Part shown: positions 1 to 55,623 of the stretch, piece after piece
Layout of the letters: each line of letters opens with the position of its first letter
Numbering within the stretch: the stretch's first letter is position 1
NCBI GenBank assembly: GCA_963667465.2
Contig: CAXXDN010000002.1
Location: 768,001-832,000, forward strand
Direction of reading: 5' to 3'
DNA: 64,000 nucleotides
Source: Dehalococcoidia bacterium
GTDB lineage: Bacteria; Chloroflexota; Dehalococcoidia; UBA2979
Position numbers and translations under genes: made by a program
The notes under the pieces: generated by a model
Databases searched by the model: none
What the model saw: only the letters and a program-made list of their open reading frames with translations
Told to the model about the DNA's origin: nothing

Positions 1-3000
1 CGGTGGGAGTGGAATCGTCGTCGGTGATGGTCACCGTCGCATCGGAGACGGTGAGGCCGGTGGCGGCGCCGTGCAGCGTGAGCGTCTCCGGGCCCTCCGG
101 CAGCGCGTCATTCGCGGGCGTCAGCGTGAAGGTTGCCTGACCGCTGCGCTGCCCCGCCGTGATGGGCACGGTCACCGGGCCGGCAGCCGTGTAATCGGTG
201 CCTGAGACGGCAGTGTCACCCGACTGACCGACGGTGACCGTCACCGCGGCATCCGTGGCGAGGGTTCCGGGCCCGACGAAGGCCGCGGTGAGGGTGAGCG
301 TCGTGGCGCCCGCGTTCTCCGCCACGCTCTCCGGGCTGACGCTCAGCATCACGGCGGTGGGAGGGCTGACCTCGCTCGTGTCGCGGATCAGGAGGGTGTG
401 CTGCCCCGCGGACCGGTCGATGGTGACGTGCTGCCCCACGACGTTCGCCAGGCTGACCAGGAGGGTCTCGGTCCCTTCTGGTATCCCGTCGGCGACGGTC
501 GGGATCGCGACCTCGGCAGTCTGGCCTCCTGCCGGGATGGTGAGGGTCGCGGGCAGGGCTGTGAAGTCCTCGCCTGCCCGAGCTGTTCCGCTGACGGCGA
601 GGTCAACGGTCACGTCATCCTGGTGGGGCTTCTGCATGCGCAGGCGGAACAGGCTCTGCTCGCCCTCTTCCACCTCGGCGTACGTCGGCCGCAGGTACAG
701 GACGCTGCGGTCATCATCGGTCAGGGTCACCACGGTGGGAGAGCCTGCCCGCACCCGCCCGCTCACCACAAGCAGCGATATGACGACCTCTTCGTCCGGC
801 TCCACGACGTTGTTGTCGACGGGGAGGATGCGGATCAGTCGCCTCGTGTCGCCAGCTGCGAAGGTCAGTTCTCCCGTGCTGATCCACCCGTCCGGACCGT
901 CAGACCGGGTGATGATGTCGCCGTCCATGCCGACCACCGAGTTGGGAGCGTGCAGCAGGTACCGCACCTCTGCCGTCGTCGCGAGGGCTGAGCTCAGGCG
1001 GACCCCGATGTCCAGCTGTCCGTCCTCGTTGAGGCTGTAGGCCGCGCGCTCGAAGGTGACGGTTGAGTCCGGCGGTCCTGTCAGGTCGTCATCGCCGATG
1101 GTCAGGTCTTCCGGATCCGGATCCTGGACCTGCGTGGTGCCCGTCACGGTCGCCGAGACCTCCACTGTCTTGCCCGGGCCGACCTCGTCGTCGTCGACGG
1201 CTGTGATGGTGACGAAGCCCCTGCTCTCGAGGGCTCCCGCCTTGACGGTCAACACCCGGTTCGTGCTGATCCTGAAGTCCGACGCAGTCGCGTTCGTTGA
1301 CGGAGCCACAGCGACGGTGAACGTGACGTCGGCGGTCACAGGCTCACTCAACCGGGCCGTGACGAAAGTCGCGCCCCTGTCCCCACCGCCCTCGGAGATG
1401 GTGGCGGGGCTCAGCACCAGCGACGACGGCACACCCGGCTGCCCGTCGTTGTCCTGAATGGTCCCGGATGCCTGCTGCGCAGGCGGCGGACTCTGGCGAG
1501 GGAGCCGCGATCGCACCCGCGGCGAGGAAGTGCTCAGGGTCACGGTAATGGTTTCGTCTCCTTCGACCACCGTGTCGCCGAGGATCGGAATGACGATGTT
1601 CCCTTGCTGGCTCCCGGCGGGAATGGTGATCGACAGCGGATCCGGAGCGGTGTAGTCGCTGCCCGCGGTTGCTGTCCCACCCAGCGTGTAGGAGACAGTG
1701 ACGCTCTTCCCGCTCACGTTGCTCAATCTGACCACAAAAGTCATGTCCGCGATCTCCTGGGGGCTATCCCCCTCCATCACGGCTATCGCATCGGCCACGG
1801 AGGCCGTCGGCGCGGCGTCGTCATCGTTGATGGTGACTTCGGCATCGGCGATCGTCAGGCCGCTCGCCGTGGCGTGCACCGTCAGCTTCTCGTCGTCCTC
1901 GTCGAGGGTGTCCTGCCTCGGCGCCAGGCTGAAGGTCCCCTGCCCGCTGCTCTGGCCCGCCGTGATCGTGATGTTGAAGCCGCTGACGCCGGTGTAGTCC
2001 GTGCCTGACTCCGCCGCGTCGCCGTCCTTGCCGACCTTCACCGTCACTGTCGTGTCGGCATCGAACGTCGTCGTGCCGCCGAGGGTCGCCGTGACCGTCA
2101 CCGTCGTCGCGCCGGCGCCCTCGGCCACGCTCGAGGGGCTCACCGACAGCGAGGCCGTCGTCGGGGCCGTGTCGTCATCGGTGATGGTGCCGGTGGCCGT
2201 CGACGAGGAGCCGAGCGTGGTGTTCGTCGGCGAGGCGAGCGTGACCGTGAAGGTCTCGTCGCTCTCGGCGATGGTGTCCTCTGTCGTCTGCACCTCGATG
2301 GTGCCGGTCCTGGAGCCGGCGGCGATGGTCAGCGTCTGGGCCGTCGTCTGGGCGGTGTAGTCCGTGTCCGCCGTCGCCTGGTTCGCGCCGTCCGCGCCGT
2401 CGTCGCCGGTCGTCCACTGCACGGTGACCTCGCGGCCTGAAACCGCGCCCAGCGTGACGGTGAACTCCGCCTTCCCGCCTTCCGCCACCGAGGCGTCAGC
2501 GATGGTCAGCTCGGGCAGCGCATCGTCGTCGGTGATCGTGACCTCGGCGTCGGCGATCGTCAGGCCGCTCGCCGTGGCGTGCACCGTCAGCTTCTCGTCG
2601 TCCTCGTCGAGGGTGTCCTGCTTCGGCGCCAGGCTGAAGGTCTGCTGACCGCTGGACTCGCCCGCTGTGATCGTGATGTTGAAGCCGCTGACGCCCGTGT
2701 AGTCCGTGTCCGAGACGGCGGTATCGCCGTCCTTGCCAACCTTCACCGCCACCGTCGTGTCGGCATCGAACGTGACGGAGCCCGCGAGGGTTGCCGTGAC
2801 CGTCACCGTCGTCGCGCCGGCGCCCTCGGCCACGCTCGAGGGGCTCACCGACAGCGAGGCCGTCGTCGGGGCGTCGTCGTCATCGGTAATCGTCAGCGTC
2901 ACCGCCTGCGGGTTCGCCACTCCGCCGCCCGAGGCTGCGCCGGATACCGTCACCGTCGCGTTGGGGGCGTCAACGTCGTTGTCCACCGCCGTCAGCGTCA

Positions 3001-6000
3001 CCGCGCCCGTGCTGGTCTTTGCGCCCGCCGCGATCGTCAGCGTCTTGTTGGTGGTGAGCGTCACCGGCGAGCCGTTCGGTACCGATACCTCGACCGTCAC
3101 CTGCTCACTCGACGCCACGGACAGCGTCGCCGTCACCGTGCTCGCGTTGTCGTCGCCGCTCTCGTCGATCGTCGCTGGGCCCAGCACCAGGCTCACGGTC
3201 GGCGTGCCCTCGTCGTCGGTGATGGTCAGCGTCACGTCCGATGGGTCCGCCACTCCGCCGCCCGAGGCTGCGCCCGACACCAACACCGTCGCGTTGGGGG
3301 CGTCGACGTCGTTGTCGACCGCCGTCAGCGTCACCGTGCCCGCGCTGGTCTTTGCGCCCGCCGCGATCGTCAGCGTCTTGTTGGCGCTGAGCGTCACCGG
3401 CGACTGAGCCGGGACCGACACCTCGAGCGTCACCTGCTCACTCGACGCCACGGACAGCGTCGCCGTCACCGTGCTCGCGTTGCCATTGCCGTTCTCATTG
3501 ATCGTCGTCGGACTCAGCGACAACGTCACAGTCGGCGTCGCCTCGTCATCGGTGATGGTGCCGGTGGCGGTCGACGTGCCGAGCGTGGCGTTCGTCGGCG
3601 AGGCGAGCGTGACCGCGAACGTCTCGGCGTCCTCGGCGATGCTGTCCTCTGTCGTCTGCACCTCGATCGTGCCGGTGGCGGAGCCGGCGGCGATGGTCAG
3701 CGTCTGGGCCGTCGTCTGGGCGGTGTAGTCCGTGTCCGCCGTCGCCTGGTTCGCGCCCTCCGCGCCGTCGTCCCCGGTCGTCCATTGCACGGTGACATCG
3801 CGGCCCGAGACCGCGCCCAGCGAGACGGTGAACTGCGCCTTCCCACCCTCCGCCACCGAGGCGTCGGCGATGCTGACCGTCGGCAGCGCGTCGTCGTCGG
3901 TGATGCTGACCTCGGCGTCGGCGATCGTCAGGCCCGTCGCGGTGGCGTGCACCGTCAGCTTCTCGTCGTCCTCGTCGAGGGTGTCCTGCTTCGGCGCCAG
4001 GCTGAAGGTCCCCTGCCCGCTCTTCTGGCCGGCCGTGATTGTCAGTGTCACATCGGACACTGCCGTGTAGTCCGTGCCCGACTCGGCCGCGTCGCCGTCC
4101 TTGCCGACCTTCACCGTCACTGTCGTGTCGGCATCGAACGTCGTCGTGCCGCCGAGGGTCGCCGTGACCGTCACCGTCGTCGCGGTGTCCTCTTCGCCCA
4201 CGCTCGACGGGCTCACCGACAGCGAGGCCGTCGTCGGGGCCGTGTCGTCGTCGGTGATGGTCAGCGTCACCGGCGACGGGTCGGAGACTCCGCCGCCCGA
4301 GGCTGCGCCCGACACCGACACCGTCGCGTTGGGGGCGTCGACATCGTTGTCGACCGCCGTCAGCGTCACCGTCCCCGTGCTGGTCGTCGCCTCAGCCGCG
4401 ATCGTCAGCGTCTTGTTGGCGCTGAGTGTCACCGGCGCGCCGTTCGGCACCGCTACCTCGATCGTGACGGCCCTGTCCGACTTGCCCGACAGCGTCGCCG
4501 TCACCGTGCTCGCGTTGTCGTCGCCGCTCTCATCGATCGTCGTCGGACTCAGCGACAGGGTCACGGTCGGCGTGCCCTCGTCGTCGGTGATGGTCAGCGT
4601 CACGTCCGATGGGTCCGCCACTCCGCCGCCCGAGGCTGCGCCGGACACCGACACCGTCGCGTTGGGGGCGTCGACGTCGTTGTCCACCGCCGTCAGCGTC
4701 ACCGTGCCCGTGCTGGTCTTTGCGCCCGCCGCGATCGTCAGCGTCTTGTTGGCGCTGAGCGTCACCGGCGAGCCGTCCGGCGCCGATACCTCGACCGTCA
4801 CCTGCTCACTCGACTCGCCCGACAACGTCGCCGTCACCGTGCTCGCGTTGTCGTCGCCGCTCTCGTCGATCGTTGAGGGAGTCAGCACCAGGGTCGCGGT
4901 CGGCGTGCCCTCGTCGTCGGTGATCGTCAGCGTCACGTCCGATGGGTTGGAGACGCCGCCGCCTGAGGCTGTGCCCGACACCGACACCGTCGCGTTGGGG
5001 GCGTCGACGTCGTTGTCGACCGCCGTCAGCGTCACCGTCCCCGCGCTGGTCGTTGTGCCCGCCGCGATCGTCAGCGTCTTGTTGGTGCTGAGCGTCACCG
5101 GCGAGCCGTTCGGCACCGACACCTCGATCGTGACGGCCCTGTCCGACTTGCCCGACAGCGTCGCCGTGACCGTGCTCGCGTTGCCATTGCCGCTCTCATT
5201 GATCGTCGCTGAGCTCAGCGCCAGGGTCGCGACCGGCGTGGCCTCGTCGTCGGTCACCGTCACCGCCACGCTGCCCACCGACTCGCCGTCGTAGTCGTTG
5301 CCACTCGAGCTCACCGTGTGCGTGATGCTCGTCTTGCGCTGGTCGCCCGTGTTGTCCAGGTCGTCGTCGACCGCCGTCACCGTCACCAGCTGCGCGTCCC
5401 ACTCAGACGGCGTGAACGTCAGCGTCTCCGCGCTCACCGTCGCCACTGTCGTGTCCGCGCTCGCAACCGTGATCGTCACCGTGCCCGTCGGCTTCGACGC
5501 CAACGACACCTCGTAGGTCGCCACGTCCTCCGCCACGTCCGCCGTCGCGTCCTTGTCCACCTCGTGGACCGTCAGCCCGCCGGCCGGCACCGCCACGCCC
5601 GCCGGGTTCGTCAGCGTCACGCCGCGCTCGTCGTCGTCGCTGATCGTGCCGCTCGCCGTCTTCGTCGTGCCGAGCGTTGCATTGGCGGGGCTCGTCAGCG
5701 TGACCGTGACGGTCTCGTTCGGCTCGTCCAGTTCGTCGCCCAGGACGGGGATGCTGATGGAGCCGGCCTCGTCGCCCGCATCGATAGTGATGGTCTTCGT
5801 CTCGGGGTCCGTGTAGTCCTCGTCCGCCGTGGCCGTGCCGCCGAGGGTGTAGTCGACACTGACGTCCCGCCCGCTGGCCGCCGACAGCGTGACCGCGAAC
5901 GTCATGTTCGTCGCCGTGCCCGGGTCGTCGCCCTCCGGCACTGCCGTCGCGTCCGCGATGGTGACCGTCGGCAGCGCGTCGTCGTCGGTGATCGTGACCT

Positions 6001-27000: not shown

Positions 27001-30000
27001 TGCGGCGCAGCGTGAGCGTGACGGGCGTGTCGACGGTCGTTGAGTAGTGGCTCCCCGTCTTGCCGCCGCTGCCCTCCGGGATGCCGTCCTGGATGTAGCG
27101 CAGCGTCTCGTCGCTCAACCAGATGCGCAATGCGTTCGGGTCCTCGATGTACCCGCGGGCGGTGTCCCGCTCGAACCGCACCTTCGCCGGGTCTCCGCTG
27201 AGCTTCACCAGGAAGTACTCGGTCCCCTCGCCGCGGGTGTCTTCCTTGATGCCCACCGAGATGGTCTTCGCCGTTTCACCGGGCGCGAAGGTGAGGCTGG
27301 CGTTGCTGACCGGCGTGAAGTCGTCCCGGCCCCACGTCGACTCTCCCCCCGCCTGCGCCGCCTCGAAGCCGCTGCCCACCGCCTCGACGGTCGACCACTG
27401 GACGGTGACGGGTACCGACTGCGCCCGCCTCAGCCGCACCGTGAACTGCGCCGCCGCGCCGCTCGCCTCCGCCACGGGCGCCGCGTCCTCGATGGTCACG
27501 CTCGCCTGATCGTCATCGTCGAGGATCTGCCCCGTGGCGCTGAGCGTCCCGCTCTTCGCCTCCGGCGCCTGCGAGAGCACGACGCGAAGGGTTTCCGTGC
27601 CCTCCTTCGCCTCGTCGTTGAGCGTCTTGACGGTGATCCGGGCGGGCACCTTGCCTCCGCTCCAGGTGTCGAAGGTGTTGGCGTATCTCGGGAACGTGAG
27701 CGTCTGCGGCAGGGCTGCCTCGTAGTCCCCCTCGGCGGCGATGGCGCTGCCGTCCTCGGTGTGCCACTGCACGGTCACGTTCTTCTGCGAGGGGGCGGAG
27801 AGCGTCGCGGTGAAGGTCAGGTCGCCGCCCTCGGTCACGGCGGTGGCGTCGCTGATGCTGAGCGTCGGGCGCGCGTCGTTGTCGCGGATGATGCCGACGG
27901 CCAAATTCTCATCGATCTGCATGCCCGATGAATCGGTGATGTAGACGATGAACCGTTCGGCCCACTCGTCGATGCCGTCGTCCACTGTCGCCAGCGAGAA
28001 CCGGGGAGCGGATGTTTCGCCCGCCGGGATGGTCATGGACTTCCCGGCCTCCGGCAGGGCCGTGTAATCCCTGTCCGATTGCAGGCTGGAGGCGGCAAAC
28101 TCGTTGGTGAGCTTGCGATACCCCAACCCCGGCTGGAAGTCATCCGATGGATCGAAGAGCGGATCCTTGCTCTTGATGGTGACGGTGATGTCCCTGCCCA
28201 CCGGCTCGCTGAGGCGCGCCTCGAAGAGCTGCGGCATGCCCTCCACCTGCCCCTCGGGGTAGACGGGCACGATGGACACCGAGGGGCCATCGAGGACCTC
28301 AACCGACGGCGCCTTGATGCTCGCCGTGAAGGCGTGCAGGGTGAAGTCGCTCCCGAAGAGCTCCCGTTCCTCCTTCGCGCCGGCGCCGCCCCCCAGGATG
28401 ATGTTGGCGACGCTGACCGAGAACTTCTCGGTACCCTCGCCGCTCACGCCGTCCTCGATGGTCGGGATGGCGATGGTCGCCTCCGTCGCGCCGGGCGGCA
28501 CGATGAACCTCCACCCGCCAGAGGCATAGTCCGACCCGGCCTTCGCGCTCTCGTCCCTGGCTAAGACCTGCACAACGAGCGAGCGCGAGATGGGGCGCGA
28601 GATGGGGCGCGAGAGGTGCAGCCGGTAGACGACGTTCTCGCCCTCCTGCACGCGCGGGTCGTCCAGCGTGATGCTCAGCTCCAGTTCATCGTCGTCGTCG
28701 CGGATGAAGCCTGTCCTGACGAGTTCGGAGCCGCCGTCGAACGTCACGGCGGCCTCGCCCATCACGGCGAACTTCAGCCGGAGCCACTCGTTCTCCTCCT
28801 CCGTGTAGTCGCCCGTGACCTGCACCTCGACGTACTTGCGCACCTCGCCCGGCTTGAACGTGACGGTGCCGGCCGCCGTGCTCGAGACGAAGTCGACGCC
28901 CGCCGTCGCGGCGTCGGGGTACTCATTGTTGGGCGCGGTCGTGTTGGACGTGTCCAGCGCGTAGGAGACCTGCACCTCCTTGTTGGTGGGGGTGTTCAGC
29001 CCGATCTCGAACCGCAGGTCTGGCGTCTCGCCCTCGTCCGCCTCGACGACGTACGCGTCCTTCGCGTAGAGCGCCGGCGGGTCGTCGTCGTCCGCGATCG
29101 TCACGTCCGTGTAGTAGAGGGTGACCGTGCCTGGCCTGGTGCTGGAGCCCTTCACCTTGAGCCCGCCGGCCCCTGCCTCCCAGACGATCTGGAAGCACTT
29201 GTCGGCGTTGTCGAGGGCGTCACCGATGGTGGTGATGGCGATCCGCTTCGTCTGCTCTCCGCTCCTCCACGTCAACGTCCGGGACGGGACAGGCACGTAG
29301 TCCAGATCGTGCTGAGCCATCTCGGCGCCACAGCTCCCGCCGACGCCTCCGCGCATGGCGTTGAAGGTGAGGGTCGCCGACTCCCCAACCTTGAGCTGGC
29401 GAGCAAGGCTCATCTCGACGACCACGTCTTCGCCCTCGATGACCGACAGCGCACTGGGCACGTTTACGTCGACCTGCTCCTTCGAGTGCAATTCAGCCGA
29501 GGCGAGGAGCTCAGAGCGTTCGCCAGCGTCTGCTTCAGGGAACATCAGGTCGCCGATGTCGGCGTCATCCAGCCAGAACCGCACCGTGAAGCGTTCCGCC
29601 TGCTCAACCAGGCCGTCGACGTGGGTGGCGAACTTGATCTCGTGCGTCTCCACGATGTCACCCGCCGGCATGACGAGTTCCATCTTCCCGGTCAGACGGC
29701 CGTTGGAGAGCGTCGTGGTGTAGGTGGGTTGATCATTCGCCGGGCGACCGCTGTCCTGGTCCGCCGTCTCCGAGGAGATGGACTTGAACTTGAAGTCCTC
29801 CCCTGTCTTGTATCCGGCGGCCTCGTTCGTGGGGCTGAAGGCGGCCGTCTCGGGTATCAGCTCCCAGCGCAGGACGCCCGACGATCGAGGGTTTGTGTAA
29901 GCCCCCTCTTCTCCCATGGGCTGCTTGGTGGTCGTCACAGTGAAGGTGATGTCGTCGCCCTCGCCGTTGTACGTGCTGGGCTTGATGGTGACGGTCGTCG

Positions 30001-32941
30001 TGCCCTCTTCGTTGTCCACGATCCGGCCCAGCACGATCAGTTCCCGGTCGGGGTAGCCGTCGCCGTCGGCGTCGGGGAAGTGGAAGCCGTCGTTGCCCTT
30101 CCGCAACCGCACCGCCACCGTCTCGTTCCCCTCCGGGATCTCGTCGTCAGTCACCGTCATGCTGAACGTTCTGCCAGGGGTCCTGTTGGCGTTGTTGTTG
30201 GGGAAGGACAGGTTCACGCTGCCCGACGTCGCCGAGGTGGTGAAGTCCGTGCCGCGCGTCGCGGTGCTCGTGTCGTCGAGGATTTCCCACGTCACCGTGC
30301 CGACGTCCAGCCGGCGTTCGGTGGTGATCCCGCGGGTGCCGCGCACACGGAAGGTCAGCGGGTCGCCCGAATCCTCCTCGACCTCCGGCGCCGTGACCTC
30401 GATCGTCCCGGTCGACTCGTCATCGTCCACGATGGTGACCTCGACGGTCAGCGCCTTCTTGCCGTTGACGAACCGGAAGTTGTCGTCGCCTCGTGGCGTC
30501 CGCAGCCTGATGACGAGCTTCTCGTCCGGCTCAAAGGCGAAATCGGGAATAGTCGTGAGATCGAGGGCCGTTTCCCGGGACCGAATGAGACCCGGTCCGA
30601 ACGTTACGGGCAGTGTTCCCGAAGCAGCCAGGGCATGGTCTTTCAGGCCCCCACCAGTGGTTGCCGTGCTCTCTGCTGAGACCACCTCCCATCTGAAACT
30701 ATAGGAACGCCCAACAGCGGATTCGGCCTGGCTCCGGTATGCGGTCAACATGATTTGCGCGGTGTTGCCGTCCGACGCCCCCGTGCCCGTGCCCTCACTC
30801 ACCGTCCCGGGAGCGGTGGCTGTCACCTGCCAATCGAGCAAGTCGTCGTCCTCGATGTGGTAGGTGAAGGTGACGGTCTTGTCCGGATCGCTGTCGGCGT
30901 CGTCCCCGTCCGGGAAGCTGCCGTCGAGCGCATTCAGCTTCAGCACGATCGACTCGCGCGACTCATGGATCTGGTCCGGACTGATGGCGATGACGAGGTC
31001 TTGCTCCACACTCGTCTTGCCCCGTTGGAAGTTGAAGGTGATATCGCCGGTCGCACCGGTGCGTCCGCCCACGGTGAAGTCGGTACCCGCTGTCGCTGTG
31101 CTTGTCGAGTCGATGGTGTAGCGGAACTTGCGGATCGTCTGCCTGGCCTGCGCGGCCTCCGCGAGGGAGCGGTGCGCGGTGAGCGTGAGCCGGATCTCAC
31201 CGGCATCCGCGGCCTTGCTCCCCTCCGTCACGACCGTCCCTTCAGCCGGCGCCTCCACGAAGATCCGGCCGGCGGGCACATCATCGTTCGCGATGGTGTA
31301 GGAGAAGTCCGCGTGGGCGGCGCCACCGGGCAGCGAGAGGCTCTTGCCGCCGATGAGGCCGGGCCCGGGTGAGAACCGGAGCGTCGCCGTCTCGGCCCCC
31401 TCCACCATGTCGTCCGGGTTGACTTCCATCGTGAGGGTTCGCTCAGCCTTCCCCGCGTTGAGGGGGAAGCCGAGCGCCAGGGTCATCTTGTTGAACTGGC
31501 GGATCGGGGGGCGCGTGACCTGGGGCTCGCGCGCCCAGATATCGCGCGTCTCCTCGGCGATCGGAACGCTGTTGTGTTCGCTATGGCCCTTCAGGTCGAC
31601 ATCCGGGTTCTGGGCGAGCGGGAACCACCAGCCCACCGTCCAGCTGGTGTTGACCGCGGTCTCCTCGGCGGCCGGGGGCGGGCGGTGCACCGTGACGGTG
31701 AAGTCGACCTGCCCCCCGGAGGTCTTGTCGAGCGCGGTGCCCTCCACCAGCGCTGACCCCTTCGGGACGCTGGGTGTGATGGTCACCACCCCGGCCTCCG
31801 GTTCGTCGTCGGCGATGTACGGCTTGACGATGACATTCCTGCGGGGGGCATCGCCGGGGGTCTGGGGGACAATTGTGGTTTGCAGCAGCGCCCCGGGGAA
31901 GGAATCGCGAACCGAGAACGACAGCGTGACCACCTCGTTGCCCTCGGCCCACAGGTCCGGCACGGTCTCCAGCACGATGCGTTTCGACTGCGCACACAGG
32001 GTCTCACCCGGTCCGTCCGGGTTCCCCGGTGGCATGTCGAACCGGACCGTGCCGCTTGTCGGCCCCGTGAAGTCGCGGAACGGTCCCGAACTGCTCGCCG
32101 TGCTCGTTTCTGTCACCCGCCAGTCGACCTCGGCGATGGTGCGTGTCAGGCACGCCGCATCCGGCCTGAAGAAGACCAGCTGCGCGCCGAAATCGGTGCC
32201 GGTTCCGCTGTCCCCCTCCGCGCCGCGGCCGTCCCTGCCATCGGCGCTAATGGGGATGACGGTGATCCTGGGCAGCTCCTGGTCGTCGTCCGCGATCGTT
32301 GCCTCTACCTGCCTGGAGTGCTTCGCGCCGTTCGGAGCGTCCTTCAGCTCGACCGTCGTCAGGCCACCGAGCTCACCCTTGAGTGTGAAGTTCACCCTGA
32401 CCGATTCATCCACCTCCTGAAAACGGTCCGAGATGGTCTTCATGTCAATGGTCGCCGTCGCGGAATCGGTATTCGTGCCTGAGAATGGGAAGTAGACGCG
32501 GAACCGCCCGCAGAACTCGTCGTCGCAAGCGTTGCTGTCCTGCTTCGAGATCGCCGAGCCCGAGGTCTTCACCACGGGATCGTCGACATCCCCGTGCTCG
32601 TGGGCGTAGTTGGGAACGGCGGGCCCGGTCAGGGTGGCAGCGCCCGACCGGTGGTTGCGATCGCTATGCCAGTCACGATCGATATTCCAGTCGACCCAGA
32701 AGCTGATGATCGGTTTGGCAGCTTCGGTGGCCGGGCGGTTCACCTCGATGGTGAACGTGAGCTTGTTGCCGTGGCTTGCCTGGTCCTTGGCGGTGCCCTC
32801 GGTTACGCCGACGGCGCTCACGGTGACGATGGTGGTGGGAGTCGTCTGGGCGAAGACCAGGCCCGGGAGGAATACAATAGTAATAGCAAGCAGGGACAGG
32901 GCGCCAACCGCCGTGTAGAAGCTGACCCGTCTCAGGGACAT
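1..32941 (-). CDS. Giant secreted Calx-beta/Ig-like repeat surface protein (putative adhesin), at least ~10,980 aa; 3' end lies beyond the left edge
   Basis: ATG at 32941 gives MSLRRVSFYTAVGALSLLAITIVFLPGLVFA|QTT (Sec signal peptide). The same frame reads sensible protein at spot checks near 30500, 29300, 26900, 1500, 620 and at 2-40 (..VTITDDDSTPT). The ORF track lists no terminated minus-strand ORF in this frame, consistent with no internal stop. Recurrent Calx-beta-like motifs: V.EG, ATAG.DY, TI.AG, DE.DETF.VTL, TI.DDD. Alternative in-frame ATG at 33049. Confidence 0.9.
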   Translation of the reverse strand, partial: MSLRRVSFYTAVGALSLLAITIVFLPGLVFAQTTPTTIVTVSAVGVTEGTAKDQASHGNKLTFTIEVNRPATEAAKPIISFWVDWNIDRDWHSDRNHRSGAATLTGPAVPNYAHEHGDVDDPVVKTSGSAISKQDSNACDDEFCGRFRVYFPFSGTNTDSATATIDMKTISDRFQEVDESVRVNFTLKGELGGLTTVELKDAPNGAKHSRQVEATIADDDQELPRITVIPISADGRDGRGAEGDSGTGTDFGAQLVFFRPDAACLTRTIAEVDWRVTETSTASSSGPFRDFTGPTSGTVRFDMPPGNPDGPGETLCAQSKRIVLETVPDLWAEGNEVVTLSFSVRDSFPGALLQTTIVPQTPGDAPRRNVIVKPYIADDEPEAGVVTITPSVPKGSALVEGTALDKTSGGQVDFTVTVHRPPPAAEETAVNTSWTVGWWFPLAQNPDVDLKGHSEHNSVPIAEETRDIWAREPQVTRPPIRQFNKMTLALGFPLNAGKAERTLTMEVNPDDMVEGAETATLRFSPGPGLIGGKSLSLPGGAAHADFSYTIANDDVPAGRIFVEAPAEGTVVTEGSKAADAGEIRLTLTAHRSLAEAAQARQTIRKFRYTIDSTSTATAGTDFTVGGRTGATGDITFNFQRGKTSVEQDLVIAISPDQIHESRESIVLKLNALDGSFPDGDDADSDPDKTVTFTYHIEDDDLLDWQVTATAPGTVSEGTGTGASDGNTAQIMLTAYRSQAESAVGRSYSFRWEVVSAESTATTGGGLKDHALAASGTLPVTFGPGLIRSRETALDLTTIPDFAFEPDEKLVIRLRTPRGDDNFRFVNGKKALTVEVTIVDDDESTGTIEVTAPEVEEDSGDPLTFRVRGTRGITTERRLDVGTVTWEILDDTSTATRGTDFTTSATSGSVNLSFPNNNANRTPGRTFSMTVTDDEIPEGNETVAVRLRKGNDGFHFPDADGDGYPDRELIVLGRIVDNEEGTTTVTIKPSTYNGEGDDITFTVTTTKQPMGEEGAYTNPRSSGVLRWELIPETAAFSPTNEAAGYKTGEDFKFKSISSETADQDSGRPANDQPTYTTTLSNGRLTGKMELVMPAGDIVETHEIKFATHVDGLVEQAERFTVRFWLDDADIGDLMFPEADAGERSELLASAELHSKEQVDVNVPSALSVIEGEDVVVEMSLARQLKVGESATLTFNAMRGGVGGSCGAEMAQHDLDYVPVPSRTLTWRSGEQTKRIAITTIGDALDNADKCFQIVWEAGAGGLKVKGSSTRPGTVTLYYTDVTIADDDDPPALYAKDAYVVEADEGETPDLRFEIGLNTPTNKEVQVSYALDTSNTTAPNNEYPDAATAGVDFVSSTAAGTVTFKPGEVRKYVEVQVTGDYTEEENEWLRLKFAVMGEAAVTFDGGSELVRTGFIRDDDDELELSITLDDPRVQEGENVVYRLHLSRPISRPISRSLVVQVLARDESAKAGSDYASGGWRFIVPPGATEATIAIPTIEDGVSGEGTEKFSVSVANIILGGGAGAKEERELFGSDFTLHAFTASIKAPSVEVLDGPSVSIVPVYPEGQVEGMPQLFEARLSEPVGRDITVTIKSKDPLFDPSDDFQPGLGYRKLTNEFAASSLQSDRDYTALPEAGKSMTIPAGETSAPRFSLATVDDGIDEWAERFIVYITDSSGMQIDENLAVGIIRDNDARPTLSISDATAVTEGGDLTFTATLSAPSQKNVTVQWHTEDGSAIAAEGDYEAALPQTLTFPRYANTFDTWSGGKVPARITVKTLNDEAKEGTETLRVVLSQAPEAKSGTLSATGQILDDDDQASVTIEDAAPVAEASGAAAQFTVRLRRAQSVPVTVQWSTVEAVGSGFEAAQAGGESTWGRDDFTPVSNASLTFAPGETAKTISVGIKEDTRGEGTEYFLVKLSGDPAKVRFERDTARGYIEDPNALRIWLSDETLRYIQDGIPEGSGGKTGSHYSTTVDTPVTLTLRRTPIPQDEVAYHEGLRTLSCFREMATGGRSATVHPESTVAVNAGAFDIASSNAADVLFQARRFEANRSLQCQTRQEVLWPLYQDWESGVWELTIPLAIPQDTRKEKDESFTVQVEFISAPTTLRRTALPDFINFELTFTIVDDDSNKVSLDFAPDSPAGGTDDDGLKYKSVQEGAGAMLRVSTSEPVATLQTVSIITRTETAEPGVDFAYAGASQVIIPAGQSHVDVPISVLDDIVYEEAESFVLELVNESNGIAIHTPQDAVRVKIPEDRPTLYVVPDVTVDEGDAATLTFRFDQPLRTDTIVSWFLVSLGVPNQATAGVHYVHPGGNNVTIPEGEISKSITISTLDNGKADGDWVFGLVARADGLGKLDTQYSHPGYELHVSLVTIRDTGTRSVAFSETPGDVSKPEGFAYDLSRPKVSVQPPDKPVFFSLAGADASHFKIHPITGVISVPALHRAAPKDAGTDNKYDLLLHVTDEDGNRATASISVTVEERPLHIEPATIAIAEKVVTTDGDTTTEAPGSAVLTVYPAAGSIREGEEVVITLSAKEVAPAYTLQRTKGNPDDPQDDGADATTELTYTFANRNARHEVTVTAVDDEIANDPPKREGVIVITVKGGGYLETQQFEVPVSVTDDDQKGILITPTELTLVESLPTDPVDVEYTVVLTSEPTGPVSVKLTGIQNSDNLLVGSGRDSDGDLVLLPNNTLTFTTKNWNKPQTVVLHKKHIRTAERDRTITIKHEVTGADYGSVEADDVAVKVLNIDATLNFGGPNKPTEGDDVEFMFFILGGAPRDYELTWSTADGPKDGANQAVAGVDYTQVTDQVLTIEKGEGAIGDEIVLTVQTTQDLIDEEDETFIITFDGPDNLVTPGVGSVKGTIKDDDEAPTVSVGDATAVAEGNDPKTATDMTFTVTLSAASSREITVDYTLGGTATAGSDYTDPATKTVTIAAGEATGSIVVPVLGDVVDEPNETITVTLSNPTNATLSTTAGDTEAMGTITDDDDGPAVTIADASAVLEGNDPNTATDMTFTVTLAAASEQDATIEYTLGGTATAGEDYTDPATKSITIEAGKTEGSIVIAVLGDVVDEVAETIVVTLTSPTNATLGSPAEATGTITDDDDAPAVSVSNASAVLEGNDPNTATDMTFTVTLAAASGQAATIEYTLGGTATAGEDYTDPATKTITIAAGEATGSIVVPVLGDVVDEDDETIILTLTNPTNATLSSTAGETEATGTITDDDASPAVTIANASAVLEGDDPSTATDMTFTVTLSAASQRATSVSYTLGGAATAGEDYIDPAPKTVTIAAGETEGKIVVPVLGDLVHDPGETIIVTLASPTNATLGTPKTATGTITDDDTAPTTASLSVSPSSVAEGAGATTVTVTATLDAITEVVRDTTVDPPTETTITKAITFATDTTVTVKVGKAGDAAESGTDYTAVSDVTLTISAGELSGEKTFSLAPKQDTLDEDDEKLTVHATATGLTISDAEVTITDDDALPTVTIADATAVPEGDDPGTATNMTFAVTLSAASGRDVSVDYTLGGTATADEDYTDPETKTITIKAGSATGSIVIPVLGDELDEPNETVTVTLTSPANATLGTTKTASGTISDDDERGVTLTNPAGVAVPAGGLTVHEVDKTATEDVAEHLATYEVSLASKPTGTVTITVGSADPTVATVSAKTLTFTPSNWAAQTVTVTAVDDDVDNAGDQRKTSITHTVSSSGNDYDGESVGSVAVTVTDDEATPTATLVLSPATINESGNGNASTVTATLSGKSDRAVTIEVSVPNGSPVTLSTNKTLTIAAGTTTSAGTVTLTAVDNDVDAPNATVSVSGTATGGGVSDPSAVTLTITDDEGTPTVSLALTPSTIDESGDDNESTVTATLSVASSEQVTVEVSVPNGSPVTLTTNKTLTIAAGAKTSTGTVTLTAVDNDVDAPNATVTVSGAASGGGVANPSPVTLTITDDEDTPTVTLSLSPTTINESGNGNASTVTATLSGESSEQVTVEVSVPAQSPVTLSANKTLTIAAGAKSSTGTVTLTAVDNDVDAPNATVTVSGAASGGGVSSPSPVTLTITDDDDAPTTAALSVSPSSVAEGAGATTVTVTATLAGSVTFAADTTVTVKVGKDGDAAESGTDYTAVSDVTLTITAGQKSGQGTFSLAPLQDTLDEADEKLTVHATATDLTIADAEVTITDDDALPELTIANASVAEGGKAQFTVSLGEVSGRDVTVQWTTGDDGAQGASQATADTDYTAQSSAATLTIAAGSRTGTIEVQTTEDSIAEGDETFTVTLASPTNATLGTSTATGTITDDDTAPTTASLSVSPSSVAEGAGATTVTVTATLAGSVTFDANTTVTVKVGKTGDTAVSDTDYTAVSDVTLTITAGQKSGQGTFSLAPMQDTLDEADEKLTVHATATDLTISDAEVTITDDDALPELTIADASVAEGGKAEFTVTLGAVSGRDVTVQWTTGDDGADGANQATADTDYTAQTTAQTLTIKSGSRTGTIEVQTTEDSIAEDAETFTVTLASPTNATLGSSSTATGTITDDDTAPTTAALSVNPPSVGEEDSATTVTVTATLGGTTTFDADTTVTVKVGEDGDAAESGTDYTAVSDVTLTISAGQKSGEQTFSLAPKQDTLDEDDEKLTVHATATGLTIADAEVSITDDDALPTVSIANAAAVAEGDDPGTATNMTFAVTLSAASGRDVSVDYTLGGTATADEDYTDPETKTITIDAGDEAGSISIPVLGDELDEPNETVMVTLTNPTNATLGKPNAASGTISDDDERGVTLTNPAGVAVPAGGLTVHEVDKDATADVAEDVATYEVSLASKPTGTVTITVASADTTVATVSAETLTFTPSEWDAQLVTVTAVDDDLDNAGDQRKTSITHTVSSSGNDYDDESVGSVAVTVTDDEATPVATLALTPSTIDESGATNESTVTATLSGKSDRAVTIEVAVPNSSPVTLGANTTLTIAAGATTSTGAVTLTAVDNDVDAPNTTVSVSGTASGGGVSDPSAVTLTITDDEGTPTVSLSLTPTTIDESGNGNASTVTATLSGESSEQVTVEVSVPNGAPVTLSANKTLTIAAGAKTSAGTVTLTAVDNDVDAPNATVSVSGAASGGGVANPQAVTLTITDDDDAPTTASLAVSPSSVGEEDSATTVTVTATLGGSTTFAADTTVAVKVGKGGDTAVSDTDYTGVSGFNITITAGQKSGQGTFSLAPTQDTLDEDNEKLTVHATATGLTISDAEVTITDDDALPELTIADASVAEGGKAEFTVTLGAVSGREVTVQWTTGDDGAQGANQATADTDYTAQTTAQTLTIAAGSRTGTIEVQTTEDTIAESDETFTVTLASPTNTTLGSPSTATGTITDDDTAPTTASLSVSPSSVGEEDSATTVTVTATLGGTTTFDADTTVTVKVGKDGDAAESGTDYTAVSDVTLTITAGQKSGQGTFSLAPKQDTLDEDDEKLTVHATATGLTIADAEVSITDDDALPTVSIADASVAEGGKAQFTVSLGAVSGRDVTVQWTTGDDGAEGANQATADTDYTAQTTAQTLTIAAGSATGTIEVQTTEDSIAEDAETFAVTLASPTNATLGTSTATGTITDDDTAPTTAALSVNPPSVGEEDSATTVTVTATLAGSVTFTADTTVAVKVGKDGDTAVSDTDYTAVSDVTLTISAGQKSGEQTFSLAPKQDTLDEDDEMLTVHATASGLTIADAEVSITDDDALPTVSIANAAAVPEGDDPGTATNMTFTVTLSAVSGRDVSVDYTLGGTATADEDYTDPETKTITIKAGSATGSIVIPVLGDELDEPNETVTVTLASPTNATLGTTKTASGTITDDDERGVTLTNTAGVAVPAGGLTVHEVDKTATEDVAEHVATYEVSLASKPTGTVTITVASADTTVATVSPKTLTFTPSEWDAQLVTVTAVDDDLDNAGDQRKTSITHTVSSRGNDYDSQSVGSVAVTVTDDEATPTATLSLSPATINESGDDNESTVTATLSGKSDRAVTIEVSVPNGSPVTLSANKTLTIAAEATTSTGAVTLTAVDNDGDAPNATVSVSGAASGGGVSDPSAVTLTITDDEGTPTATLVLSPTTINENGNGNASTVTATLSVASSEQVTLEVSVPAQSPVTLSANKTLTIAAGAKTSAGTVTLTAVDNDVDAPNATVTVSGAASGGGVSSPSPVTLTITDDEGTPTVSLSLNPTTIDESGDDNASTVTATLSVASSEQVTVEVSVPAQSPVTLSANKTLTIAAGAKTSTGTVTLTAVDNDVDAPNATVSVSGAASGGGVAHPSPVTLTITDDDDAPTTASLSVSPSSVAEGAAATTVTVTATLAGSVTFAADTTVTVKVGKDGDTAESGTDYTAVSDVTLTITAGQKSGQGTFSLAPRQDTLDEDGEKLTVHATASGLTIADAEVTITDDDALPELTIADASVAEGGKAQFTVSLDAVSGRDVTVQWTTGDDGAEGANQATADTDYTAQTTAQTLTIAAGSRTGTIEVQTTEDSIAEDAETFAVTLASPTNTTLGSPSTATGTITDDDTAPTTASLSVSPTSVGEEDSATTVTVTATLGGSTTFAADTTVAVTVGKDGDAAESGTDYTGVSGFNITITAGQKSGQGTFSLAPKQDTLDEADEKLTVHATATDLTIAVAEVTITDDDALPELTIADASVAEGGKAEFTVTLGAVSGRDVTVQWTTGDDGAEGAKQATADTDYTAQTTAQTLTIAAGSRTGTIEVQTTEDSIAEDAETFAVTLASPTNATLGTPKTATGTITDDDTAPTTASLSVSPSSVAEGAGATTVTVTATLDAITEVVRDTTVDPPTETTITKAITFATDTTVAVKVGKDGDTAVSDTDYTAVSDVTLTISAGQKSGEQTFSLTPKQDTLDEDDEKLTVHATATDLTISDAEVTITDDDALPTVTIADATAVPEGDDPGTATNMTFAVTLSAASGRDVSVDYTLGGTATADEDYTDPETKTITIDAGDEAGSISIPVLGDELDEPNETVTVTLTSPANATLGTTKTASGTISDDDERGVTLTNPAGVAVPAGGLTVHEVDKDATADVAEDVATYEVSLASKPTGTVTITVASADTTVATVSAETLTFTPSEWDAQLVTVTAVDDDLDNTGDQRKTSITHTVSSSGNDYDGESVGSVAVTVTDDEATPTATLVLSPATINESGNGNASTVTATLSGKSDRAVTIEVSVPNGSPVTLSTNKTLTIAAGTTTSAGTVTLTAVDNDVDAPNATVSVSGTASGGGVSNPSDVTLTITDDEGTPTATLVLTPSTIDESGDDNASTVTATLSGESSEQVTVEVSAPDGSPVTLSANKTLTIAAGAKTSTGTVTLTAVDNDVDAPNATVSVSGAASGGGVSDPSPVTLTITDDEGTPTVSLSLTPTTIDESGDDNESTVTATLSGKSDRAVTIEVSVPNGSPVTLSTNKTLTIAAGATTSTGAVTLTAVDNDVAAPNATVTVSGAASGGGVSSPSPVTLTITDDDDAPTTASLSVSPSSVAEGAGATTVTVTATLAGSVTFDADTTVAVKVGKDGDTAVSDTDYTGVSGFNITITAGESSGQKTFSLAPRQDTLDEDDEKLTVHATASGLTIADAEVTITDDDALPELTIADASVAEGGKAQFRVTLGAVSGRDVTVQWTTGDDGAQGANQATADTDYTAQSSAATLTIAAGSATGTIEVQTTEDSIAEDDETFTVTLASPTNATIGTSTATGTITDDDTASTTASLSVSPSSVAEGAAATTVTVTATLAGSVTFNADTTVAVKVGKDGDTASSGTDYTGVSGFNITITAGQSSGQGTFSLAPRQDTLDEDDEKLTVHATATGLTISDAEVTITDDDALPTVTIADATAVPEGDDPSTATNMTFAVTLSAASGRDVSVDYTLGGTATADEDYTDPETKTITIAAGSATGSIVIPVLGDELDEPNETVTVTLASPTNATLGTTKTASGTITDDDERGVTLTNTAGVAVPAGGLTVHEVDKTATEDVAEHVATYEVSLASKPTGTVTITVASADTTVATVSAETLTFTPSEWDAQTVTVTAVDDDVDNTGDQRKTSITHTVTSRGNDYEDESVGSVAVTVTDDEATPTATLSLTPSTIGESGATNESTVTATLSGKSDRAVTIEVSVPNGSPVTLSANTTLTIAAGATTSTGTVTLTAVDNDVDAPNATVSVSGVASGGGVAHPSPVTLTITDDEGTPTVSLSVSPATIDESGDDNASTVTATLSVASSEQVTVEVSVPNGSPVTFGANKTLTIAAGAKTSTGTVTLTAVDNAVDAPNATVSVSGVASGGGVANPSPVTLTITDDEGTPTVSLVLGPATIDESGDDNESTVTATLSGKSDRAVTIEVSVPNGSPVTLSTNKTLTIAAGTTTSAGTVTLTAVDNAVDAPNATVSVSGAASGGGVANPSPVTLTITDDDTAPTTASLSVNPSSVAEGAGATTVTVTATLAGSVTFNANKTVTVKVGKGGDTAVSDTDYTGVSDFSITITAGESSGEKTFSLAPLQDTLDEADEKLTVHATAEGLTIADAEVTITDDDTEPELTIADASVAEGGKAEFTVTLGAVSGRDVTVQWTTGDDGAEGAKQATADTDYTAQSSAATLTIAAGSATGTIEVQTTEDTVAEGAETFTVTLASPTNATLGTSTATGTIIDDDTAPTTASLSVNPTSVAEGAGATTVTVTATLAGSVTFNADTTVTVKVGKAGDTAVSDTDYTAVSDVTLTITAGQSSGQGTFSLAPLQDTLDEADEKLTVHATATDLTIAVAEVTITDDDALPELTIADASVAEGGKAEFTVTLGAVSGRDVTVQWTTGDDGAEGAKQATADTDYTAQTTAQTLTIAAGSRTGTIEVQTTEDSIAEDAETFAVTLASPTNATLGTPKTATGTITDDDTAPTTASLSVSPSSVAEGAGATTVTVTATLDAITEVVRDTTVDPPTETTITKAITFATDTTVAVKVGKDGDTAVSDTDYTAVSDVTLTISAGQKSGEQTFSLTPKQDTLDEDDEKLTVHATATDLTISDAEVTITDDDALPTVTIADATAVPEGDDPGTATNMTFAVTLSAASGRDVSVDYTLGGTATADEDYTDPETKTITIDAGDEAGSISIPVLGDELDEPNETVTVTLTSPANATLGTTKTASGTISDDDERGVTLTNPAGVAVPAGGLTVHEVDKDATADVAEDVATYEVSLASKPTGTVTITVASADTTVATVSAETLTFTPSEWDAQLVTVTAVDDDLDNTGDQRKTSITHTVSSSGNDYDGESVGSVAVTVTDDEATPVATLALSSATINESGNGNASTVTATLSGKSDRAVTIEVSVPNGSPVTLSTNKTLTIAAGTTTSAGTVTLTAVDNDVDAPNATVSVSGTASGGGVSNPSDVTLTITDDEGTPTATLVLTPSTIDESGDDNASTVTATLSGESSEQVTVEVSAPDGSPVTLSANKTLTIAAGAKTSTGTVTLTAVDNDVDAPNATVSVSGAASGGGVADPSDVTLTITDDEGTPTVTLSLSPTTIDESGDDNASTVTATLSGKSDRAVTIEVAVPNGAPVTLSANKTLTIAAEATTSTGTVTLTAVDNDVDAPNATVSVSGAASGGGVSDPSPVTLTITDDDTAPTTASLSVSPSSVGEEDTATTVTVTATLGGTTTFDADTTVTVKVGKDGDAAESGTDYTAVSDVTLTITAGQKSGQGTFSLAPKQDTLDEDDEKLTVHATATGLTIADAEVSITDDDALPTVSIADASVAEGGKAQFTVSLGAVSGRDVTVQWTTGDDGAEGANQATADTDYTAQTTAQTLTIAAGSATGTIEVQTTEDSIAEDAETFAVTLASPTNATLGTSTATGTITDDEATPTVTLSLSPTTINENGNGNASTVTATLSVASSEQVTLEVSVPAQSPVTLSANKTLTIAAGAKTSAGTVTLTAVDNDVDAPNATVLVSGAASGGGVADPSDVTLTITDDEGTPTVSLVLGPATIDESGDDNASTVTATLSVASSEQVTVEVSVPNGSPVTLTTNKTLTIAAGAKTSTGAVTLTAVDNDVDAPNATVTVSGAASGGGVANPQAVTLTITDDDDAPTTASLSVSPSSVAEGAGATTVTVTATLAGSVTFDADTTVAVKVGKDGDTAVSDTDYTGVSGFNITITAGESSGQQTFSLAPKQDTLDEDDEKLTVHATASGLTIADAEVTITDDDALPELTIADASVAEGGKAEFTVTLGAVSGREVTVQWTTGDDGADGANQATADTDYTAQTTAQTLTIAAGSRTGTIEVQTTEDTIAESDETFTVTLASPTNTTLGSSSTATGTITDDDTAPTTASLSVSPSSVAEGAGATTVTVTATLGGTTTFDADTTVTVKVGKDGDAAESGTDYTGVSGFNITITAGQSSGQGTFSLAPRQDTLDEDDEKLTVHATASGLTIADAEVTINDDDAAPTASVADAIAVMEGDSPQEIADMTFVVRLSNVSGKSVTVSYTLGGTATAGSDYTAPDPLSITIPAGSQQGNIVIPILGDTVVEGDETITVTLSTSSPRVRSRLPRQSPPPAQQASGTIQDNDGQPGVPSSLVLSPATISEGGGDRGATFVTARLSEPVTADVTFTVAVAPSTNATASDFRISTNRVLTVKAGALESRGFVTITAVDDDEVGPGKTVEVSATVTGTTQVQDPDPEDLTIGDDDLTGPPDSTVTFERAAYSLNEDGQLDIGVRLSSALATTAEVRYLLHAPNSVVGMDGDIITRSDGPDGWISTGELTFAAGDTRRLIRILPVDNNVVEPDEEVVISLLVVSGRVRAGSPTVVTLTDDDRSVLYLRPTYAEVEEGEQSLFRLRMQKPHQDDVTVDLAVSGTARAGEDFTALPATLTIPAGGQTAEVAIPTVADGIPEGTETLLVSLANVVGQHVTIDRSAGQHTLLIRDTSEVSPPTAVMLSVSPESVAENAGATTLTLTAAFVGPGTLATDAAVTVTVGQSGDTAVSGTDYTAAGPVTVPITAGQRSGQATFTLTPANDALPEGPETLTLHGAATGLTVSDATVTITDDDSTPT
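4640..6842. repeat. ~2.2 kb near-identical direct repeat, copy 1 (copy 2 at ~10985-13187, offset 6345)
   Basis: Shadow ORFs 5298/11643, 5553/11898, 5889/12234 and 6162/12507 have identical translations; only a few nucleotide differences seen by eye (near 5039 and 5211-5235). Confidence 0.85.
10985..13187. repeat. ~2.2 kb near-identical direct repeat, copy 2
   Basis: Matches 4640-6842 at offset 6345. Confidence 0.85.
22960..24360 (-). repeat. Four tandem, more diverged type-E Calx-beta modules preceding the main array
   Basis: Four copies of ..EG(N/D)DP.TATDMTFTVTL.AAS...Y.LGG.ATAG.DY.DPA.K..TI.AG...G.IV..VLGD.V.E..ETI..TL..PTNATL.. Confidence 0.8.
25510..25810 (-). other. Cadherin-like domain within the giant protein
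   Basis: Translation ..VSKPEG..PVFFSLAGADASHFKIHPITGVISVPALHRAAPKDAGTDNKYDLLLHVTDEDGNRATASISVTVEE resembles the bacterial cadherin pattern (L.GADA..F.I...TG, P.D...DN.Y....VTD). Confidence 0.6.
28583..28614. repeat. In-frame 12-bp tandem duplication (GCGCGAGATGGG x~2.7) encoding LSRPISRPISRS
   Basis: Seen directly in the sequence. Confidence 0.8.
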
Positions 32942-33065
32942 CAGCGGTGACCGACTGTGACTATCGAGGCGTCCGGCGCAAACACCCGCTGGAACACCTA
33001 GTGCCGAGCCTGCATGAGCTCGCTCCCCTCCCGGCGCGCAGGGCAACATCCATGCAACGACATTG

Positions 33066-33071
33066 ATTGTA
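33066..33071 (-). promoter_or_regulatory. Candidate -10 element (TACAAT) for the giant gene
   Basis: TACAAT on the minus strand in a locally AT-richer patch ~125 nt upstream of ATG 32941. Confidence 0.45.
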
Positions 33072-33690: not shown

Positions 33691-33730
33691 ACGCACTGCA
33701 GGGCAGGACAGCGGCAGGCAGCTGGTCCGG

Positions 33731-55620: not shown

Positions 55621-55623
55621 GCC

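Follow-up and report, generated by a model that had tools for sequence, protein, structure and literature searches.

LapA of Pseudomonas, SiiE of Salmonella and MpIBP of Marinomonas are type I-secreted giant repeats-in-toxin (RTX) adhesins. Ebh of Staphylococcus aureus, of about 1.1 MDa, is a Sec-dependent protein of a monoderm bacterium, built from helical FIVAR/GA modules and held by a C-terminal membrane anchor. Among animal proteins, the sponge aggregation factor is described as an extracellular host protein of Calx-beta domains with additional Wreath and von Willebrand domains (PMC5400394), and two further articles report Calx-beta, cadherin and fn3 domains to be enriched in sponge symbionts (PMC9531527, PMC11706023). 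Here we describe a 34.7-kb gene of a sponge-dwelling Dehalococcoidia bacterium (assembly GCA_963667465.2; genome G000 in this study) encoding a Calx-beta protein of more than 1 MDa. The window, that is, the whole 64,000-nucleotide stretch of DNA that was analyzed, corresponds to positions 768,001 to 832,000 of contig CAXXDN010000002.1 (G000:C2:768001-832000), and the giant gene occupies C2:766196-800941 on the minus strand. It is a real, unbroken single gene of secretory type and probably encodes an acidic, Thr-rich, Sec-exported extracellular fiber that would serve for attachment or for building matrix inside the sponge. The parts of the gene that lie in the window are listed below.

1..32941, minus strand: in-window part of the giant gene (codons 1-10,980 of 11,581), without stops, GC content at third codon positions (GC3) 0.92
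32849..32941, minus strand: predicted Sec-type signal peptide of 31 residues, with an RR n-region, a hydrophobic core, a P-G break and VFA before Q
24362..32848, minus strand: weakly repetitive N-terminal region (residues 32-2860) with about 23 divergent modules of Calx-beta-like type; modules 1 to 5 have no Pfam match
1820..24361, minus strand: repetitive core (residues 2861-10374) of five unit types, A-E, with copies 88-93% identical in DNA
1..1819, minus strand: C-terminal region (residues 10375-11581, of which 10375-10980 in the window), containing Calx-beta-like modules together with a further four units of type A and an X-Y pair that occurs repeatedly

When open ends are allowed, the listing of open reading frames (ORFs) in the window contains a minus-strand ORF at 2..33049 of 11,016 amino acids that is open at its 3' end. 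Extension beyond the left window edge places the stop at C2:766196-766198, 1,805 nt left of the window, giving 11,581 codons from the ATG at 32941 or 11,617 from the first ATG (window 33049); the gene calls of the orthologs P0003 and P0004 also begin at the Met encoded by the ATG at 32941. The precursor has a mass of 1,173,442 Da, a pI of 4.05 and a net charge of about -1,190, and is rich in Thr (17.5%) and acidic residues (1,709 D+E against 520 K+R), with only nine Cys. A sequence-only reading of the window had proposed a single minus-strand frame running from a signal peptide at 32941 to position 2 and on past the edge, with about 10,980 codons in the window and a secreted product above 1 MDa. 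The codon count is exact, (32941-2+1)/3, the mass estimate is borne out, and the 34.7-kb frame stays intact to its stop: its full translation contains none of the in-frame stops or frameshifts by which that reading had said it could be overturned. The same reading had noticed that the ORF track missed the gene, which it did because the ORF list by default drops frames that run off the source. It had also looked to a leftward extension for a stop and an anchor; the stop was found, and no transmembrane segment, LPXTG motif or other C-terminal anchor.

The coding signature of the frame is strong, with GC3 of 0.92 against 0.54 at second codon positions. No other coding-like ORF in the 2.97-Mb genome exceeds 2,590 amino acids, and the spurious antisense ORFs within the giant gene reach at most 1,304. 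The gene, which makes up 1.17% of the genome, lies on a 1.9-Mb contig, far from the contig ends. GC content is about 0.66 in window 24001-36000 (the unique N-terminal part, a methyltransferase gene and a MarR gene), 0.70 in the repeat core and 0.707 in the genome. Public reads support the unique N-terminal 8.8 kb, all sampled words of which occur in five runs from two studies. Two runs labeled as sponge metagenomes hold 0.96 and 0.66 of the sampled words, and in one of these the N-terminal 8.8 kb is tiled without a difference. The interval 24212-33000 is spanned by one Logan contig in runs X1 (no differences) and X5 (one difference), which come from two studies, and is tiled by run X6 with no differences.

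Cutting the protein at the recurrent ...I/T-x-D-D-D/E ends gives 86 segments and, once multi-domain segments are allowed for, an estimate of about 97 modules. Modules 1 to 5 can be aligned to one another and show Calx-beta hallmarks, namely an acidic ...PD...EG.E... stretch and a closing I-x-DDD. When 1.84 billion representative proteins were searched, the N-terminal 810 residues gave only five matches, of which one is P0003, three are short fragments and one is weak. The core is built from the following units.

Unit A, 118 residues, 22 copies in the core: no Pfam match for a single unit
Unit B, 111 residues, 19 copies in the core: LapA-like, a single unit scoring 23.2 bits, below the 27-bit cut-off
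Unit C, 117 residues, 11 copies in the core: Calx-beta, 46 bits for a single unit
Unit D, 116 residues, 10 copies in the core: Calx-beta, 38 bits for a single unit
Unit E, 129 residues, 6 copies in the core: no single-unit Pfam match, a weak summed Cadherin_3 signal

These units follow each other in the order DDDDAD, then E BBB ACACAD, E BB ACACAD, E BBB ACACAD, E BBB ACAD, E BBB ACACAD and E BBB AC BB ACA, forming six super-repeats that each open with E (E starts at window 22189, 18694, 15532, 11974, 9184 and 5629). In the C-terminal region, a single unit Y reaches 39.5 bits for Calx-beta and unit X 22 bits, below the cut-off. The gathering cut-offs are 27 bits for Calx-beta (PF03160), 27 bits for LapA (PF20579) and 25.5 bits for Cadherin_3 (PF16184). 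Scored on successive thirds of the protein, Calx-beta reaches 300, 328 and 244 bits (9+12+8 stretches) and LapA 58, 115 and 134 bits (3+8+8 = 19 stretches). Cadherin_3 reaches 38.7 and 28.8 bits only when summed over copies, with no individual stretch above its cut-off. Of the Calx-beta and cadherin models that the sequence-only reading had suggested running, the first is thus amply matched and the second only in sum; its Calx-beta/Ig-like β-sandwich build is supported, with about 97 domains estimated here against its roughly 90.

An AlphaFold2 (AF2) model of an A-C pair, made with an alignment that included related loci, has a mean predicted local distance difference test score (pLDDT) of 95. 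Foldseek returns the paired Ca2+-binding domains (CBD12) of the exchangers NCX1 and CALX as its best matches (E 1e-11), and comparison with single CBD1 domains gives TM scores of 0.78-0.85 and rmsd values of about 2 Å at 22-30% identity. The E-B pair, also modeled on an alignment with related loci, comes out as two β-sandwiches (pLDDT 88.5), again with NCX1/CALX CBD12 among the top fold matches. An acidic cluster closes each module and is conserved (...TITDDD, AVDNDVDAPN), and D[DN][DE] motifs number 131 in the giant protein. In the E-B alignment (19 sequences) the acidic positions D89, D92, N93, D127, D209, D238 and D239 are invariant, as are the acidic junction residues in the A-C alignment (18 sequences). 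These conserved motifs, together with the modeled likeness to NCX1 CBD12, suggest that the chain may be stiffened by Ca2+. A phmmer search of one super-repeat against the PDB sequences gave no matches. The nearest Atlas clusters, to be taken as leads only, are exclusively bacterial Calx-beta, GEVED and LapA.

Translation from the ATG at 32941 starts with MSLRRVSFYTAVGALSLLAITIVFLPGLVFA, followed by QTT, with small residues at positions -3 and -1. This N-terminal segment is the only clearly hydrophobic stretch of the protein (19-residue Kyte-Doolittle mean >1.8), the sole other candidate being a borderline window at residue 3052. There are no LPXTG and no GGxGxD (RTX) motifs in the 11,581 residues, and the C-terminal part, which ends in ...QAGNGQ within a Calx-beta module, has no hydrophobic window that could serve as an anchor. 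The genome contains signal peptidase I genes and, elsewhere, one sortase gene. Export by the Tat route was considered on account of the RR pair and nearby tatB/tatC genes, and was judged not to apply, given how hydrophobic the signal core is and how large the protein. The tatB and tatC genes lie at window 55177-56433 on the plus strand, 22 kb from the giant gene, and their presence was judged a coincidence.

The named relatives of G000 by UvrB are "Chloroflexi bacterium" (95%) and "Dehalococcoidia bacterium" (75-77%). Neither Omp85 (PF01103) nor TolC-type OEP (PF02321) has a match in G000, which is 93.6% complete; each family was positive in 7 of 14 control genomes. No LapG-type protease (PF06035) was matched in G000, and no ATP-binding cassette (ABC), membrane fusion protein (MFP) or other secretion genes flank the giant gene. 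The gene content indicates a monoderm-type Chloroflexota host in which type I secretion would not be an option. Because the host has neither Omp85 nor TolC-type genes, Sec is the default, plain export route; the contrast with type I-secreted adhesins therefore reflects the host envelope, not a new route. The sequence-only reading was right that the N-terminal signal is of Sec type, and none of the type I secretion features searched for was found; its surprise at this combination is not warranted for a host of this kind. A study of sponge SAR202 genomes reports that they lack peptidoglycan synthesis genes (PMC6306507).

The giant gene is accessory and is carried on an island of 45.2 kb (window -2442 to 42765; negative numbers count leftward from the window) inserted exactly at the 3' end of the transfer-messenger RNA (tmRNA) gene. 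The tmRNA gene itself (G000:C2:765203-765557; window -2797..-2443; L091:5203-5557) lies outside the window. Synteny with G001, whose 16S is 99.93% identical to that of G000, runs through ferredoxin oxidoreductase, Bcp, S41 protease, SmpB and tmRNA genes, ends at the last base of tmRNA (window -2443) and restarts at 42766 with a CoA-transferase gene. Besides the giant gene, the island contains the following features.

33050..33730, no strand assigned: spacer 5' of the giant gene, with frame-shifted, transposase-remnant-like fragments on the plus strand
33731..34549, minus strand: class I S-adenosylmethionine methyltransferase
34609..35052, minus strand: MarR-family regulator
35401..42099, minus strand: bacterial alpha-2-macroglobulin-like protein of 2,232 residues (MG2, bait region, A2M, bMG10 and three Big_5 domains)
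42100..42765, no strand assigned: right end of the island, with synteny to G001 from 42766

The spacer fragments are presumably the remnant of an IS110-like transposase, and a scan of 32800-33800 found no sigma-70-like promoter or terminator. The alpha-2-macroglobulin-like protein has no match in the compared regions of G001. The tmRNA site was compared in G001, G004, G009, G013 and G018, and the tmRNA 3' end is a variable spot in the genus. G009 has no insert, its tmRNA gene lying 119 nt from the CoA-transferase gene; the insert measures 519 bp in G001, about 10 kb in G004 and 45.2 kb in G000. The insert in G004 differs from that in G000 and carries an IS481-like transposase. An ORF of 320 residues at window -6784..-5822 was likewise interpreted as an IS481-like transposase, and that insert holds a copy 92% identical to it; a further ORF outside the window (-21134..-20172) has the same length (320 residues) and codon-position GC.

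The N-terminal 840 residues of the giant protein were not found in 40 relatives or in 98 other genomes of the family. Calx-beta matches occur in 11 of the 18 other genomes of the genus, in open frames of up to 9,360 residues with signal peptides of their own. In G001 (C3:3051459-3082535; loci L092-L094) a Calx-beta frame of 9,360 codons, which encodes a signal peptide and lacks an anchor, is followed by a Calx-beta frame of 1,816 residues, and the methyltransferase encoded just upstream is a 45% identical paralog of the island methyltransferase of G000. G012 (C19), G004 (C1:1745001-1760657) and G015 (C1:690991-704178) have giant frames of 5,874, at least 5,219 and 4,396 residues, respectively; the three share a C-terminal domain of about 100 residues (...WPECL.GE...SLV.YEGGSV.DL.AC...) that is missing from the G000 giant.

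The close orthologs are partial frames. P0003 (5,787 residues) and P0004 (6,238 residues) match the N-terminal part collinearly at 86% identity and run out in frameshift-like tails inside the array, and P0160 (4,886 residues) begins inside a domain and has the same C-terminus at 91% identity. The gene for P0004 lies on a 2,918,552-bp contig whose UvrB (P0041) is 99% identical to that of G000. Since UvrB is 99% identical in this genome and the N-terminal part of the giant protein 86%, the giant gene evolves roughly 10 times faster than UvrB.

A search with the E-BBB block against species-representative genomes yielded 71 loci in metagenome-assembled genomes (MAGs) whose titles name many phyla. 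They include Candidatus Poriferihabitaceae, Candidatus Entotheonella and Candidatus Palauibacter irciniicola, which we take to be sponge symbionts. The best E-BBB loci belong to G115, a MAG titled Acidimicrobiia, whose 16S and UvrB are 78% and 61% identical to those of G000. Its repeats follow the E-BBB-A-C syntax of G000 with units 70-84% identical (among 25 of the 71 loci). One end of G115 contig 1 (C1:1616076-1655000) is occupied by an open frame of at least 12,975 residues, the first 2,800 of which are 83% identical to the G000 giant. At an end of G115 contig 2 (C2:1951166-1982710), a frame of 10,515 residues has the G000-type C-terminus at 69-70% identity (loci L109-L112, counting those on contig 1). 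If the two pieces belong to one gene, its product would exceed 23,000 residues, twice the size of the G000 giant. The GC content of the G115 giant is 64-65%, and that of four other 20-kb samples of the genome 62.5 to 66.7%. The G000 and G115 giants have no neighbor genes in common, and the stop of the G115 giant is followed, about 3.4 kb on, by a tRNA-Ser gene. The N-terminal module is present in one of the 44 genomes behind the E-BBB loci and in none of 40 relatives of G115. Pairwise identity among G000, the P0003/P0004 pair and G115 is 82-87% in the N-terminal part. Because the three lineages are nearly equidistant here while their marker identities range from 99% to 61%, the pattern is that of horizontal transfer of the whole gene. 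These comparisons point to cross-phylum transfer of the giant gene among sponge-associated bacteria. Neither the island beside the tmRNA gene nor the occurrence of a near-identical gene in a distant phylum had been noticed in the sequence-only reading.

We propose the following route from gene to function. The hydrophobic N-terminal signal would direct the nascent chain to the Sec translocon, and in a host without outer-membrane assembly or TolC-type genes, crossing a single membrane would place the protein outside the cell. The roughly 97 tandem β-sandwich modules would fold there, and their acidic clusters would most likely bind Ca2+ at the domain junctions in seawater-like sponge fluid. Ca2+ binding would stiffen the chain to a rod of roughly 0.4 µm, at about 4 nm per domain. 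The fiber would most likely serve attachment to the host matrix, host cells or neighboring microbes, or the building of matrix in the sponge. It may be retained on the cell by an uncleaved signal acting as an anchor or by non-covalent binding, or it may be released into the matrix. At 1.17% of the genome, the gene must repay its cost.

A number of observations weigh against this interpretation or parts of it. The order and number of the super-repeats rest on one assembly, because the Logan contigs that touch every bin of the core are short and placed at multiple positions. The orthologs P0003, P0004 and P0160 are split in other assemblies, so the gene may be decaying in some populations or may be difficult to assemble, and there are no RNA runs among those listed for the N-terminal 8.7 kb. 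Unit A, the most abundant, and unit E have no Pfam match on their own. For the island, no integrase was found among the scanned genes (small ORFs at both ends lay outside the scan), the longest repeat shared by its ends is 11 nt, and its absence in relatives could instead reflect deletion there. For the transfer, both halves of the G115 gene lie at contig ends, and a 13.6-kb contig (L015) of G117, a genome titled Dehalococcoidia, is 99.4-99.95% identical to parts of the G115 array. G117 does not have the N-terminal module, and UvrB identity between it and G000 is 68%; L015 is probably a mis-binned fragment or haplotig, and a chimeric join in G115 is unlikely.

The first of these points raises the question of whether the length or order of the array is an assembly error, with a true gene that is shorter, longer or interrupted. 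The super-repeats, 88-93% identical in DNA over 3-7 kb with a longest exact repeat of 1,609 bp, would favor such an error, as would a core that no Logan contig bridges, the partial frames of P0003, P0004 and P0160, and the break of the G115 assembly inside its gene copy. We nevertheless regard it as quite unlikely: the 34.7-kb frame stays open far from the ends of a 1.9-Mb contig, and the copies differ by 7-12% and in composition (BBB or BB, ACACAD or ACAD), as expected for old, diverged duplicates and not for collapsed or duplicated reads. The ratio of nonsynonymous to synonymous substitution (dN/dS) between copies is below 1 (0.37-0.54 for 15 pairs of 351 codons; 0.49 over 2,373 codons). The partial orthologs, at 5,787 or 6,238 plus 4,886 residues, also sum to a similar length, if they belong to the same protein. 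The same values bear on the idea of a silent or decaying relic of a transferred gene that is open by chance, which the split frames in related assemblies, the presumed transposase-like remnant directly upstream and the lack of a listed RNA run might suggest. Such a relic is very improbable given a 34.7-kb frame uninterrupted by stops, dN/dS values of 0.4-0.5 between copies, GC3 as in host genes, and a signal peptide and termini conserved in three lineages.

Accepting a real fiber, its main role could be other than adhesion, as a surface coat or spacer or as an envelope layer of wall-poor Chloroflexota; a coat would form a hydrated, negative brush that keeps sponge phagocytes, phages or neighbors at a distance. 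The extreme charge and Thr content would suit such a brush, no distinct ligand-binding tip domain was found (every module looks Calx-beta-like), there is no anchor motif, and the absence of peptidoglycan synthesis genes noted in the SAR202 study (PMC6306507) would fit an envelope layer. An accessory island gene that is absent from the sister species is, however, unlike a core envelope part, and its domain families are those of known adhesins and matrix proteins, so that we consider a main role other than adhesion unlikely. An adhesin of the LapA/SiiE/MpIBP type using type I secretion can be given next to no credence. The tandem Ig-like build and the 19 LapA-domain (PF20579) stretches recall such proteins, but the idea is already contradicted by the lack of GGxGxD motifs, TolC-type OEP, Omp85, LapG-type protease and flanking ABC/MFP genes, and by an N-terminus that is of Sec type and not a retention module. 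More speculatively, a single gene of 35-70 kb may act as a mobile "docking fiber" cassette that is exchanged whole between Chloroflexota and Acidimicrobiia sponge symbionts, lands beside tmRNA or tRNA genes, and engages or imitates the Calx-beta matrix of the host aggregation factor, so that its carriers are treated as residents and not as food. Taken as a whole this scenario is rather improbable. Its transfer part is well supported; its host mimicry part is pure inference, nothing having been found in its favor beyond the shared domain family.

An exported Calx-beta fiber for attachment or matrix building thus remains the interpretation we prefer, and it accords with the reported enrichment of Calx-beta, cadherin and fn3 domains in sponge symbionts. 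The G000 giant supplies an actual case, known over its full length, of the Calx-beta enrichment that PMC9531527 and PMC11706023 describe in statistical form. It indicates that giant Calx-beta genes can be accessory, island-borne, fast-evolving and common to sponge-dwelling phyla, and it provides a testable case of how uncultured symbionts keep their place in a bacteria-eating animal. It is also a natural experiment on the transfer of a gene far larger than the usual mobile cargo. Orthologs that are split or truncated elsewhere call for caution in annotation.

The sequence-only reading had regarded a protein of this length as rare and knew of no characterized example in the lineage. The second part holds for the literature, in which no description of a >1-MDa Calx-beta protein in sponge Chloroflexota was found (supplementary gene lists, for example those of PMC9531527 and PMC11706023, were not covered). 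The words "Calx" and "sponge" are absent from the giant-gene preprint 10.1101/2023.11.21.568195, and "Calx," "adhesin" and "Chloroflex" from PMC11573180. The first part is not supported for giant Calx-beta proteins: of 791 scored candidates of 3,665-11,664 residues, 535 match the C-terminal part, and Calx-beta matches occur in the 11 of 18 genus genomes mentioned above. Since giant Calx-beta proteins are this common in metagenomes, the G000 giant joins an already known kind. Of these, the uncharacterized P0008 (from a Leptospirillia MAG, 6,721 residues), P0017 (Pedobacter, 7,271 residues) and the 9,360-residue frame of G001 resemble it in domain family, size class and N-terminal signals. They differ in that, beyond the close orthologs and G115, identity over the N-terminal region is only 23-41%, and the first 810 residues of the G000 giant are a near-orphan.

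With LapA, SiiE and MpIBP, the G000 giant shares tandem Ig-like β-sandwiches, acidic and presumably Ca2+-binding junctions, a mass of about 1 MDa and matches to the Pfam LapA domain. In contrast to these adhesins, it has a Sec-type signal in place of an N-terminal retention module and no RTX repeats, and belongs to a monoderm-type host whose genome has no TolC, Omp85 or LapG genes. Ebh is similar in its Sec signal, its mass of about 1.1 MDa, its repetitive rod and its occurrence in a bacterium without an outer membrane, whereas the G000 giant is all-β and Calx-like and has no C-terminal hydrophobic segment. The NCX1/CALX CBD12 domains (PDB entries 3us9, 3rb7 and 2dpk) are the best structural matches of the A-C model; however, they are cytoplasmic regulatory domains of eukaryotic exchangers, present in two copies and not in an extracellular chain of about 97 modules. 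The sponge aggregation factor is likewise extracellular, built of Calx-beta domains and found in the same habitat. It is unlike the G000 giant, for which the Pfam results contain no Wreath or von Willebrand domains and whose nearest clusters are bacterial, with the shared domain family as the only homology shown between the two. What distinguishes the G000 giant among all of these is its completeness, its place on a tmRNA-linked island and the existence of a cross-phylum copy.

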